Shown here: in pieces, positions 25,122 through 28,886 of the stretch
Position numbering within the stretch: position 1 is the stretch's first letter
Layout: each line of letters opens with the position of its first letter
Origin: Candidatus Thorarchaeota archaeon
Lineage (GTDB): Archaea > Asgardarchaeota > Thorarchaeia > Thorarchaeales > Thorarchaeaceae
Direction of reading: 5' to 3'
Length of the DNA stretch: 34,771 bases
Assembly (NCBI GenBank): GCA_048882385.1
Contig: JBHLRQ010000016.1
Location: 1-34,771, forward strand
The notes under the pieces: model-generated
Told to the model about the DNA's origin: nothing
The model's input: the letters and a program-made list of their open reading frames with translations, nothing else
Databases searched by the model: none
Program-made: the position numbers and the translations under genes

Positions 25122-25241
25122 ATTCCAAGCACCTGAAAAGGTGCGCCATGCAACAAGAAAAAGGCTTACGGTGTGACGAAAAACGCTCAAAACTATTGTA
25201 AGATCATCGGAATGTCGACTCTCTCACCAGGAAAACCAATC

Positions 25242-26213
25242 TTAACCACAAGTTTTGACATCCTGTTCAACTGTTTCATTTTGTTTTGAATTTCTGGTCA
25301 TGCCTGACCAAACAACGTTCGAGAGGCCTTCATCACGTGCAATCTGTGCAAGGTGTTCCATCGTTTCCTCAGAAACTAAGTCATAGTCTTTGAGTGGATA
25401 TTCCAAGTCAAATAGTGCATATTTGTCAATACACATTCTATTGAACGCAAGAAGATCGTACCGTTCAACATGCGGCATATTCTCAAGGATGAAACGAGCA
25501 ATTCCGCGAATATTGTTTTCATCATCAGTGTGTTCCGGTATAATTGGTGTTCGAATCCAAACAGGTTTCTTGCTTTCAGAAACAATCTTGGCATTCGAAA
25601 GAACTGTGTCAAGTGATACACCAGTAAACTCCTTGTGCTTGATGGGATCCATTTGCTTCAAATCGTATAAGACCATGTCAACATGAGGTAGAATATCTCT
25701 GAGAACTTTCTCGCTACAGTAGCCGCATGTGTCAAGTGCAACATGAATATCTGCTTTTTGCAGACTCTTTGCAAGTTCAATAGCAAAATCAGCTTGATAT
25801 GTTGCTTCTCCTCCTGAAAGTGTTACACCACCATTAGAAGTTTCGAAAAACACCTTATCACGAAGCAATTCTTGAACGAGGTCTTCCGAAGACCAAACCT
25901 TCCCCATTACTTTCACTGCACCTGTTGGGCATTTGTCTTCGCAAATTCCGCAAACAACACATTTCTCTCTATCAATCTTCAAGCCATCAGGAGTTAGTTC
26001 AAGGGCTTCTTCTGGACATGCTCTAACGCACGCCTCATCACCAATACACTTCACTGCGTACCAAACAATTGTTGACTTCGGATCAATTGCTTCTATATTG
26101 TGGCACCAAGTACACGACATTGGACAACCTTTGAAGAAGACTGTAGTCCTTATCCCTGGTCCATCCTCAGTCGAACACCTTTGGATATTGGTGATTATTC
26201 CAGACTTGGTCAT
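25242..26213 (-). CDS. Glycyl-radical-enzyme activating protein (radical SAM with a ferredoxin insert)
   Basis: DGPGIRTTVFFKGCPMSCTWCHN (CxxxCxxC), ferredoxin Cys clusters (CVVCGICEDKCP), GGVTLSGGE and DTCG. Confidence 0.93.
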   Translation of the reverse strand: MTKSGIITNIQRCSTEDGPGIRTTVFFKGCPMSCTWCHNIEAIDPKSTIVWYAVKCIGDEACVRACPEEALELTPDGLKIDREKCVVCGICEDKCPTGAVKVMGKVWSSEDLVQELLRDKVFFETSNGGVTLSGGEATYQADFAIELAKSLQKADIHVALDTCGYCSEKVLRDILPHVDMVLYDLKQMDPIKHKEFTGVSLDTVLSNAKIVSESKKPVWIRTPIIPEHTDDENNIRGIARFILENMPHVERYDLLAFNRMCIDKYALFDLEYPLKDYDLVSEETMEHLAQIARDEGLSNVVWSGMTRNSKQNETVEQDVKTCG

Positions 26214-26311
26214 TAGCGTGAGTGCTCCGTCCTAGTAATGATTTCTTCCTGTACTTCTCTGCTAACTTGCGTAAAGAATGCATTGTATCATGAAACTAGC
26301 ACTATAAGATT
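26213..26311 (-). pseudogene. C-terminal remnant of a glycyl radical enzyme (PFL-like) with an in-frame TGA
   Basis: Manual translation gives NLIVLVS*YNAFFTQVSREVQEEIITRTEHSR*, matching the GRE C-terminal consensus DLIVRV(S/A)GY.AYF..L....Q.EII.RT. Its TAA overlaps the activase ATG (TAATG). Confidence 0.85.
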
Positions 26312-26720
26312 TGAGTTGCAAATGACTGAATTTTGAGTCCTTTTTATTAGTATCCAAGGAGGATGGAGTGAGGGATTTGCATTAACAAATGAAGAAATAG
26401 AGAGATTTGGAAAAGAAGCGAAGGTCCAATTATGGTCGGGTAAAGGGTTCTTCTCTTGATGCTATCGTATCTTGTTGGTAGGGAATTGATATTCGTGTCA
26501 GATTTTGATTTGACTTTTGTTGCGTATTTGATCTTACTATTCTTCACAACCACAGGAGGGTATCTTCTAGTTAAGGGACTGCTTCATATAGTGAATGATT
26601 CGAGTCGTGATTAATTGATTCAGGTACGACCATGCAACTGGCGCTAGCCTTAAAAGCAGTCCCAGTCCTCTGGCCCCATCCGCCCGAAGAGAGATTACTG
26701 GGTATCAGGAAGGCTCTAGA

Positions 26721-28886
26721 ATGAATAGAACGAGTAAATTGTTTGCACTCCTTGTTATCACAATGATGTTTGTAGGAGCCGTACAAACTCAAATGCAAGC
26801 TTCAGTTGTAAGTCATGAGAACCTGATAACACCAACTGAGAGAATTGTCTTCTCAGGCTATGATTCTCCCAATATCACAGTGGTTCATAATAGCCCGGCT
26901 AATGGGAGTACTCAATCAGGAACTTTCAACATTAATATCGATACTACATCAGACTATGGCTCCCTGAACTTAACTCTCTATGTTGAAGGCGCAGTATATA
27001 GTGGACATGATCACGAAAACCTCACTGATGGAAATCATAATATCAATGTGGATTCGACAACTCTTGCTGAGGGGATGCTGAACTTTACTCTCCTCTTTGA
27101 GTTCTTGGCGGAGAGAGAATCTGTCTATCTGCTTTATTTTGTTGACAATGAGGTGCCAAACTTTGAGTTTGCCCTATACAATCCTGCTAATGGAACGACA
27201 ATCAGTAGTGTAGTCAGTATAAATATCAACGCCACACATGACTTTGGATTTCTGAATCTCACAGTACTGGTTGATGGAGTGGCTCAAGCACCTTATGATC
27301 CCTTACTCATTCCGTCAGGGGACACAAGCGTAATTATAGACACTAGCACTCTCTGGGAAGGATACAATAACTTCACTCTACTCTTTGAGTACGATGTCTT
27401 GGTAACCAGCTTCACTACAACCATATACCTCGAATATTTGGTTGACAATGATGGTGAACCAATTTCTGTTGATCATCAATCACCAGCATTTGGGTCAGAG
27501 GTGTCTGGCTCATTTGACTTGGTTCTGCTGATTGGATCTCAATACGAGCCATTGAACCTTACTCTCTATGTAGAAGGAATAGTTCAAGAAGGTTTCAACA
27601 AGACTCCAATAGGAATTCGTGAACAGACTATTTCTGTAAACACAACTGGATTGCCAGAGGGTTCTCTCAACTTCACACTGGTATTAGAGTACAATGTGAC
27701 TGGTGAGAACGCGAGAGCAGTTTACTATATCTTATTCACTGTAAATAATCATGGACCGCCAGGATTGGAATTTCTTGCTCCTGCAGAATTCGAAACCATT
27801 ACAGGATTGGCGGATCTATATCTGAATATTAGTTCAACATACGCCTATGGCGACATCTTCCTGAACGTAACTGTTGATGGACAGTTAGCAGACGAATTCA
27901 GAGGAACTCTTGTGGCGGCGGGTGCCAATAACTACACATTGAACTCAAGCCGATATGAAAATGGCAATCATATTGTCACTGTCACCGTCTACACGACAGA
28001 AGGTGAACAGATTACAATTACTCGTGAGTTTGTTTTCTTGGACTATGTCAGAGCTTTTGTATCACAATTAGCTAATTTTGAGGAAGTTTCTGGAGTTGCG
28101 CAAATCAGACTAAGGGTTGAAACACCATATGATAATGCTACAGTTTCTCTATACATTGATGATGTTCTAGCACAAGATGTTTCCAATATCACAGTTTTAC
28201 CGGGTGTGAACATTGTTCCTGTGAACACAACTGTGTTCCCAGAAGGCGAGTCGGTTTTCACTTTCTGTACATATGACGGATTAGGTCATGTCTGGAAACA
28301 TACGATTACATTGATAATAGACAACCATGGACCACCTGTGCTTAGGTTCGCGACAACTTCTGATGTTTTGGTGGGTCTTGCAGAGTTTGTCGTTGATGTT
28401 CAGACGGAGTTATCAAATATCTATGCCTCTGTTTATGTTGATGATGAACTTCTGGATGATTATGTGAATGAAAGTATAGACGTGAGTGGTGGAACATTCA
28501 CATTTTACATTGATGTAGGTGCTTACAGCAAAGCAGAACATATTGTGACGGTTGTCATGTTCACTGAAGAAGGCGAGAGGTCTGAGGTAGAAAGAGCATT
28601 TGGGTTTGCTTCATTCCGAATCGAAGAGATCGTAAGTGGAATAATTCTACTTGGTGTCGCGCTATTCATTCCTCTGTACAGATGGAGGAAGGGACAATCT
28701 ATGCGACCAGCAATTATAGTCGACCTTATTTTCTTCGCGGTTGTTGCGGCTGCATTCTTTATCCTAGGCATCACAACAATTCCGTTTCTGTTATGGCACA
28801 TAAATCTGGCCAGCATTTGGGCTATAGGAAGTGCTCTAATCTTTGCTAATTGGGTCTTGCCAATAGTAATGATGGAAGAGGAATAG
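26721..28886 (+). CDS. Surface glycoprotein with about six Ig-like repeats and a C-terminal 3-TM anchor
   Basis: Signal peptide; roughly 100-aa beta-rich repeats (SPANGS...LNLTLYVEG...VDN); about 20 N-x-S/T sequons; three C-terminal hydrophobic helices. Confidence 0.85.
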   Translation: MNRTSKLFALLVITMMFVGAVQTQMQASVVSHENLITPTERIVFSGYDSPNITVVHNSPANGSTQSGTFNINIDTTSDYGSLNLTLYVEGAVYSGHDHENLTDGNHNINVDSTTLAEGMLNFTLLFEFLAERESVYLLYFVDNEVPNFEFALYNPANGTTISSVVSININATHDFGFLNLTVLVDGVAQAPYDPLLIPSGDTSVIIDTSTLWEGYNNFTLLFEYDVLVTSFTTTIYLEYLVDNDGEPISVDHQSPAFGSEVSGSFDLVLLIGSQYEPLNLTLYVEGIVQEGFNKTPIGIREQTISVNTTGLPEGSLNFTLVLEYNVTGENARAVYYILFTVNNHGPPGLEFLAPAEFETITGLADLYLNISSTYAYGDIFLNVTVDGQLADEFRGTLVAAGANNYTLNSSRYENGNHIVTVTVYTTEGEQITITREFVFLDYVRAFVSQLANFEEVSGVAQIRLRVETPYDNATVSLYIDDVLAQDVSNITVLPGVNIVPVNTTVFPEGESVFTFCTYDGLGHVWKHTITLIIDNHGPPVLRFATTSDVLVGLAEFVVDVQTELSNIYASVYVDDELLDDYVNESIDVSGGTFTFYIDVGAYSKAEHIVTVVMFTEEGERSEVERAFGFASFRIEEIVSGIILLGVALFIPLYRWRKGQSMRPAIIVDLIFFAVVAAAFFILGITTIPFLLWHINLASIWAIGSALIFANWVLPIVMMEEE

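Follow-up and report, generated by a model that had tools for sequence, protein, structure and literature searches.

The window analysed here, a stretch of 34,771 nucleotides from a Candidatus Thorarchaeota archaeon, carries on its minus strand at 26214–26316 what is almost certainly the 3′ remnant of a deleted PFL2-type glycyl radical enzyme (GRE) gene that encoded a protein of about 800 amino acids. About 34 codons are left, and they lie directly upstream of an intact gene for a GRE-activating enzyme. Our account of the locus as a whole is that the remnant is the fossil of a GRE deletion, of which the last ~75 nt were probably kept for cis-acting signals of the activase. It is ordinary gene decay, and what makes it modestly interesting is the comparative pattern. 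Repeated loss has spared the same block, in-frame mini-ORFs are found in sister species, and a PNPOx-like gene was lost together with the GRE.

Direct translation of the minus strand from 26311 to 26211 gave NLIVLVS*YNAFFTQVSREVQEEIITRTEHSR*. The glycine loop of GREs has the motif RVxG[FWY], and its glycine carries the radical. The loop RVSGYAV is quoted in a passage of a review (PMC13450708). The window does not have this loop, as it reads LVS*Y where the relatives have RVTGY or RITGY. The stop codon TGA (26288–26290, minus strand) stands at the radical-glycine codon, which is GGA, GGG, GGC or GGT in the alignment of the relatives, and CTA (Leu, 26297–26299, minus strand) stands at the conserved Arg codon of RV(T)GY, which is CGT, CGA, CGC, CGG or AGA in the relatives. 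On the same strand, the stop codon TAA of the remnant frame overlaps the activase start as TAATG (26211–26215), the last A of TAA being shared with the ATG. This reading, the two odd codons at one G-to-T step each and the stop/start overlap had been described in the initial annotation, and all of them were reproduced when we read the sequence directly.

In a blastx search of the upstream DNA against nine full-length orthologous GREs, 43 residues were aligned with 63% identity (E 4.5e-11), and a DNA profile made from the 3′ ends of nine intact orthologues matched the window at 26210–26316 with an E value of 2e-26 (nhmmer). When the three GREs of the genome itself were searched against the 3.7 Mb genome by tblastn, the remnant came out as the best match after the paralogues themselves (E 0.044, 0.22 and 0.50). 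These alignments covered the last ~32–47 residues of the paralogues, to the very end. The initial annotation had regarded a non-match to the Gly_radical model as speaking against its own proposal, and a non-match is what we found. Pfam hmmscan of the 32-aa read-through gave zero families at E ≤ 10, and a six-frame PF01228 search of the genome at E ≤ 10 listed the three full GREs, with the remnant absent. We explain this by the fragment being short and decayed, and we let the orthologue evidence override it. Upstream of 26347, blastx found no GRE similarity in any frame, as had been noted before for the frame of the remnant, and the ~650-aa PFL-like barrel is absent; the DNA there corresponds to the spacer of the relatives. 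Taken together, the blastx alignment, the DNA profile and conserved synteny support the descent of the fragment from a GRE gene. The remnant itself falls outside both the GRE and the GrcA family, as it has no glycine loop, no HMM match and no ORF.

The orthologous activase was present in 21 of the 24 same-genus genomes, at 73–84% protein identity. The locus was read in 20 same-genus relatives, with upstream DNA in 19 of them plus G017, and G024 is known only by a Gly_radical match that lies at the end of a contig, immediately upstream of the activase. In 17 of the 20 relatives, an intact GRE ends in ...NLMVRVTGYNAFFTQVGRELQEEIITRTEHSL* at exactly the position of the window's remnant, with the frame open onto the activase ATG, and the other three carry different truncations. 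The GRE frames of the relatives close with ...YSNLMVRVTGYNAFFTQVGRELQEEIITRTEHSL and minor variants of it (also written ...RV(I)TGYNAFFTQ...TEHSL), directly on the activase ATG. The openness of the 17 frames refers to the end of the fetched DNA (253–499 codons), and full length was checked in the nine loci fetched with long flanks, where the GRE has 799–826 aa. The initial annotation had postulated the deletion of a GRE of approximately this size and had suggested looking for an intact copy upstream of the activase in related genomes; these loci bear it out. The GRE of one relative matched the Pfam PFL-like domain at 1.7e-152 and Gly_radical at 2e-27. The same intact orthologue is nearest to the PFL2/dehydratase subfamily TIGR01774 (543 bits), at a score below every equivalog cut-off. 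It shares with PFL2/glycerol-dehydratase-type GREs and their adjacent activases both Pfam domains, the RV(T)GY loop and the stop/start overlap, whereas the window keeps only ~34 codons, with a stop at the glycine, Leu for Arg, and neither a start nor the catalytic body.

We considered whether an assembly or sequencing artefact, that is, a chimeric join or base errors, had made the junction, the TGA and the CTA. The assembly is fragmented (256 contigs), and in one contig of the X1 data set 26289 is instead joined to 26624, one side being only 23 nt long. However, the same TGA and CTA were found in Logan contigs, not raw reads, of three studies (the assembly may derive from one of these), and the junction is bridged by a single contig in two of them (X1 and X7). 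The X1 contig spans 26010–26662 with 0 differences, and the X7 contig spans 26161–26719 with 1 difference, at 26317. The X2 contigs cover 26070–26304 with 0 differences and 26313–26900 with 2 differences. Moreover, the DNA on both sides of the junction is syntenic with the relatives. An artefact is therefore highly improbable, and the confirmation of both codons and the junction that had been called for was obtained at the level of contigs. The alternative joint in X1 (26289–26624) may be another allele of a related strain or species.

In the relatives, the locus in the activase direction starts with a ThiN-type regulator (310 aa), a 287-aa protein and, in the opposite orientation, a ~720-aa protein. 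Next comes a conserved ~110-nt element, followed in many of them by a small two-helix membrane ORF that is also oppositely oriented. Then come the GRE, the activase and a 276-aa protein, whose start overlaps the stop codon of the activase, and after these a GNAT acetyltransferase, a TrpY-family regulator and an MFS transporter. The window shares these neighbours, minus the GRE and the 276-aa gene. The small membrane ORF, which the relatives have between the 721-aa gene and the GRE, is decayed in the window (26333–26623, plus strand) and contains an in-frame stop. The stretch 26333–26466 aligned to the small-ORF spacer of G013 (64% identity, E 5e-9), and this alignment ends ~83 nt before the G013 GRE start. 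The GRE 3′ homology stops at 26316 by nhmmer, and the spacer homology with the locus L030 stops at about 26333. These homology limits place the deletion junction at 26317–26332 on the minus strand, with the GRE 3′ end to its right and spacer-homologous DNA to its left. The limits were taken from blastn and nhmmer; a global pairwise alignment was set aside because it spread the spacer across the entire GRE gene.

With a 5′ profile covering the native GRE promoter and start, the other three truncated loci were matched and the window was not. Together with the end of the spacer alignment, this result suggested that a deletion of ~2.4 kb took the native promoter box, the start codon and ~765 codons. 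We also considered, and dropped, a deletion running from AATCTTAT in the native promoter box to AATCTTAT in the codons Asn-Leu-Met, because the ACTCA to its left matches the 3′ side of the gene and the 5′ profile misses the window. Right after the activase stop, the DNA reads ...PGERVDIPMILQ*, which resembles residues 263–272 of the 276-aa protein (10-aa match, 80% identity, E 0.07). This match is weak alone and correctly placed, and 25193–25240 (minus strand) is probably what is left of the 276-aa PNPOx-like gene, its last ~15 codons. The genome has no other copy of this gene at E ≤ 1e-3. The 276-aa protein has a sub-threshold PNPOx_N match only, and its look-alikes in the atlas are PNPOx-domain clusters, which we take as a lead only. 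We propose that the ancestral operon of the genus would have consisted of a ~800-aa GRE of the PFL2/dehydratase type, the activase and the 276-aa PNPOx-like protein. In the lineage of the window, besides the ~2.4-kb deletion of the GRE promoter, start codon and ~765 codons, a second deletion, flush with the activase stop, would have taken out the 276-aa gene. Being no longer translated, the ~34 leftover GRE codons would then have decayed, with Arg becoming Leu and Gly becoming TGA among other changes.

The initial annotation had mentioned, as less likely, that the fragment is a recoded or mini spare-part glycyl-radical peptide, in which TGA is read as Gly or Sec and which acts like GrcA. The TGA falls exactly on the glycine codon, and ARAGORN called a tRNA-SeC in the genome. 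However, TGA is the commonest stop of this genome (582 of 1549 long ORFs; TAG 500, TAA 467), the relatives have GGN at the glycine codon, and TGA ends their GRE gene in 15 of 19 loci. An alternative code in which TGA is Gly (NCBI table 25) or Sec does not fit with a TGA that is a general stop. The genome is archaeal, since TBP is present and the TBP control search was positive in archaea only. In this frame, a GTG at a distance of four codons is the only start ahead of the TGA, and no ATG, GTG or TTG follows the TGA. As for the spare-part function, GrcA/YfiD is a short protein homologous to the GRE C-terminus, as the remnant is, and GrcA-type models align to residues 726–798 at the C-terminus of the intact orthologue. 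On the other hand, GrcA/YfiD requires a translatable ORF of ~80–130 aa with a glycine loop. The window has neither an ORF nor the glycine, its frame continues for only 24 codons past the stop, Leu replaces the Arg of the motif, and the coding constraint is relaxed. Such spare-part proteins are described as known only for formate lyases in a portion of the review PMC13450708. With no usable start, no glycine, relaxed constraint and TGA as a normal stop, we reject the recoded or GrcA-like peptide as very improbable.

The activase (25242–26213, minus strand) is intact and has 323 aa, with a TIGR02494 score of 317.8 bits against a cut-off of 174.35. It also carries the Pfam Radical_SAM and ferredoxin-type cluster domains, and CPMSCTWC, the CxxxCxxC motif, is found at residues 30–37. 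It is the sole GRE activase of the genome: only 1 of 29 TIGR02494 matches is above the cut-off, the next one scores 30.3 bits, and the next tblastn match to the activase covers 101 aa at 31% identity. In comparison with the relatives, dN was 0.10–0.20 with dS saturated, and dN/dS was 0.03–0.06 in the 6 of 20 comparisons where it was computable. The activase is under strong purifying selection.

In this genome (3.7 Mb, 256 contigs, 95% complete), three full-length GREs lie on other contigs (C52, C3 and C57), with open frames of 797, 778 and 795 aa ending in ...VRVAGYS... The genomes of the genus have 1–6 Gly_radical matches each, mostly 2–4, and mostly one activase. Judging from gene content, the single activase presumably serves the three intact unlinked GREs. 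We suggest that it has been retained because it is the only GRE activase and the three unlinked GREs apparently depend on it. The specificity of GRE activases is described as little studied in a passage of the review PMC13450708. In the available part of a study on mangrove-sediment Asgard archaea (PMC8163825), several PFL2-like GREs, there named Ass/Bss-like, are reported, and five of seven genomes have one activase gene each, with the CxxxCxxC motif and extra cysteine-rich boxes. This agreed with the set found here, namely several GREs and one activase with the motif and cysteine-rich boxes, whereas gene remnants like that of the window are not mentioned in that part of the paper.

The truncated alleles of the other three relatives differ from that of the window. 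In G016, the native start (TTG ACA GTT ...) is joined to the last 23 codons at a 4–5-nt microhomology, ACAA[T], and the result is an in-frame ORF of 29 codons. In G011, TTG ACC and the Gly-Tyr codons meet at a microhomology of 6 nt, TGACCG, and the in-frame ORF has 27 codons. The G020 allele, in which codon ~7 is joined in frame to the last ~83 codons, is a collapse to GrcA size, but it is followed by a frameshift and stops. The four truncated alleles thus have different junctions, and at least the last 24 GRE codons are kept in all of them. Where nearly the whole gene was lost, the right-hand ends fall inside the last ~105 nt of the 2.4-kb gene. G016, G011 and G020 keep the native GRE promoter, which is lost in the window, so an internal one is not strictly needed at these three loci.

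In a maximum likelihood tree of activase DNA (21 rows), G016 grouped with the intact G022 and G008 with a support of 99/98, and the other three truncated rows formed an unresolved comb. The grouping of G016 with intact loci means that at least two GRE losses are forced by well-supported branches, and four are required in the best tree. G016 and G011 lack the 276-aa gene as well, and it is present in G022, the sister of G016. The activase-linked GRE and its PNPOx-like neighbour were therefore lost together at least twice, which suggests a functional tie, and because of this co-loss the pair looks like one functional module.

The 3′ end of the GRE gene was also conserved at the nucleotide level where the gene is intact. 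As a measure of synonymous conservation in nine intact clade-1 genes, we took, in 12-codon bins, the fraction of same-residue pairs that use the identical codon. This fraction was 0.77 in codons −24 to −13 and 0.64 in codons −12 to −1, compared with 0.36–0.54 in 18 other GRE bins and 0.37–0.58 in 24 activase bins. In 15 intact loci including a distant clade, the third-position entropy was 0.82–1.12 at the gene end against 0.98–1.59 elsewhere, which is a modest drop. The changes at codon positions 1/2/3 numbered 13/8/15 in the truncated copies and 11/3/44 in ten intact clade-1 loci, counted against a clade-1 consensus that was built from those same ten loci. The spread in the truncated copies suggested that the peptide is no longer under selection, although the DNA persists. 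The truncated copies differ from the clade consensus at 7–10 of 76 positions, and the intact genes at 3–8.

Within this block, ACGGAGCA (26223–26230, minus strand) contains GGAG (26225–26228), the likely Shine-Dalgarno of the activase. It is invariant in 20 of 20 loci and sits at the upstream edge of the genome-wide Shine-Dalgarno peak, a G-rich peak at −14 to −6 before the start codons of 1549 long ORFs. Consensus folding of −78 to +30 in 20 loci found no conserved RNA fold, and the window's own fold was no stabler than shuffles (z +0.7 to +1.7). ARAGORN found no tRNA at the locus. The one Rfam hit in 26000–27000 was sub-threshold (plant-virus xrRNA; 23.1 bits, gathering score 31, E 0.033), and we take it as chance.

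Since the GRE 3′ end is constrained in intact genes and kept by all truncated alleles, its simplest reading is as an expression region of the activase. The last 24 former GRE sense codons (26216–26287, minus strand) are thus a candidate internal promoter or leader of the activase. From these sequence comparisons, we consider it fairly probable that the remnant was retained for cis signals of the activase. The initial annotation had attributed its survival to the Shine-Dalgarno of the activase, and the invariant ACGGAGCA, the synonymous constraint and the presence of the same codons in every truncated allele all agreed with this. In addition to the Shine-Dalgarno, an internal promoter and/or an unstructured leader most likely lies within the block, as suggested by the synonymous constraint and the repeated survival. 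An internal promoter would be sensible because the activase is needed whether or not the linked GRE is transcribed. In the window, another promoter would be needed because the native GRE promoter is lost, unlike in the other three truncated loci.

The promoter candidates were picked by eye. The first is CTTATAG (26302–26308, minus strand), a TATA-like box peculiar to the window, as the relatives have CTTATGG, CTCATGG and similar; by eye, it resembles the boxes upstream of the tRNA genes of the genome and the native GRE promoter box. The second is TTCTTTAC at about 26271–26278, inside the constrained block. Upstream of the 1549 long ORFs, there was a Shine-Dalgarno peak and no positional TATA peak; a genome-derived promoter matrix could not be built from these ORFs, and the upstream regions of tRNA genes were read by eye. 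The arrangement resembles that of overlapping operon genes in which signals of the downstream gene are embedded in the upstream coding sequence, with a shared overlap, an invariant Shine-Dalgarno in the upstream CDS and synonymous constraint. It differs from embedded ribosome-binding sites in that the constraint reaches ~75 nt upstream, beyond what a ribosome-binding site needs. In E. coli, the activase gene pflA reportedly has a promoter of its own.

Another possibility is that the remnant is a real GRE remnant and a neutral leftover, where the deletion ended by chance, little time has passed and only the GGAG matters. Pseudogene remnants are common, and the truncated copies are only slightly more diverged than the intact genes, so that recent deletions could explain the retention. 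It is also consistent with such a leftover that the constrained block 26216–26287 shows no obvious strong TATA box and that the native GRE promoter is present in three of the four truncated alleles. However, the synonymous constraint in intact genes is limited to these 24 codons, and the four alleles, with their different junctions, all stop short of the block. The right-hand ends of the near-complete losses also lie within the last ~105 nt of a 2.4-kb gene. We therefore regard a purely neutral leftover as unlikely and prefer retention for the signals of the activase.

The remnant behaves as other gene remnants do when they harbour the ribosome-binding site or the promoter of the gene that follows, and the finding leaves the knowledge of glycyl radical chemistry and of the genetic code unchanged. 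For annotation, the fragment should be marked as a GRE pseudogene remnant rather than as a recoded gene or a small protein, and the activase should be read as shared by three unlinked GREs. The genus can be viewed as a natural experiment in which every loss left the activase in place together with ~75 nt of the 'coding' DNA upstream of it. This sparing points to the site of activase expression signals in an uncultured archaeal lineage.

We tentatively put forward, as a serious possibility, that the last 24 GRE codons are dual-use DNA, which would serve at the same time as the C-terminus of the enzyme and as the internal promoter or leader of the sole activase. If this is true, the activase would be expressed independently and serve the unlinked GREs, the block would be effectively undeletable, and each independent GRE loss would leave the same fossil. 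The microhomology-mediated in-frame collapse in G016 and G011, from 800 codons to 29 and 27, would then represent the birth of a leader ORF. The mini-ORFs of G016 and G011 keep the native start and the stop/start overlap with the activase.

The glycyl radical enzyme (GRE) gene is also truncated in three relatives of the same genus. At loci L027 (G016) and L029 (G011), all that is left of the 800-codon GRE is an in-frame mini-ORF, of 29 and 27 codons respectively, 80–90 nt upstream of the gene of the GRE-activating enzyme (activase); the deletions ran between microhomologies of 4–6 nt. The native promoter box and TTG start survive at both loci, and the stop of each mini-ORF still overlaps the activase start. 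The truncated GRE of G020 (L028) is located ~290 nt upstream of the activase, and an in-frame internal deletion has brought codon ~7 next to the final ~83 codons. Judging from the sequence, the in-frame product would be GrcA-sized with the glycine loop RISGY retained, but this copy is now frameshifted, with two TGA stops and one TAG.

The GRE stub in the window contains a perfect 8-bp palindrome, AATGCATT (26277–26284, minus strand), which covers the codons Asn-Ala-Phe and falls within the stretch of the stub that is under the strongest constraint. It is invariant in every stub and throughout clade 1, the group of relatives' loci that includes ten intact GRE copies. The palindrome could be a regulator-binding site. 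A gene for a TrpY-family regulator is found two genes downstream.

The genes on both sides have been affected as well. In relatives, a 276-aa PNPOx-like gene overlaps the stop of the activase; it was deleted in the window and in G016, while G011 keeps a 5' remnant. The ~15 codons that follow the activase stop in the window (25193–25240, minus strand), ending in PGERVDIPMILQ and a stop codon, are probably the end of this gene, and no second copy was found elsewhere in the window's own genome. On the other side, a small two-helix membrane ORF of ~90–100 aa is present in G013, G010, G018, G002 and G001, and in duplicate in G020. Its remnant in the window (26333–26623, plus strand) is interrupted by an in-frame stop, leaving only a 52-aa ORF at 26456–26614, and the GRE deletion presumably also took the promoter region of this ORF.

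One contig of X1, a run whose assembled contigs match the window locus, joins 26289 to 26624 and skips 334 nt, its shorter side being only 23 nt; it could come from a related strain or species that carries a shorter allele of the spacer, or else be noise.

ARAGORN called only 20 tRNA genes in the 95%-complete assembly of the window's own genome, including one tRNA-SeC and two to which it assigned no definite type. Archaeal tRNAs with introns probably escape this count.

The ~110-nt element at 26624–26733 shows 96–97% identity to G013 and 75–85% to other relatives, and its plus strand carries the TATA-like CTTAAAAG. It had neither an Rfam nor a tRNA match. The element adjoins and slightly overlaps the start of a 721-aa protein gene (26721–28886, plus strand), whose position is conserved across the genus, and probably represents the promoter of this gene together with its 5' leader, or else an unknown small RNA. 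The 721-aa protein, which had no match in NCBIfam, has a signal-like N-terminal segment followed by repeated ~90-aa modules with many N-x-T/S sites, and C-terminal membrane helices.
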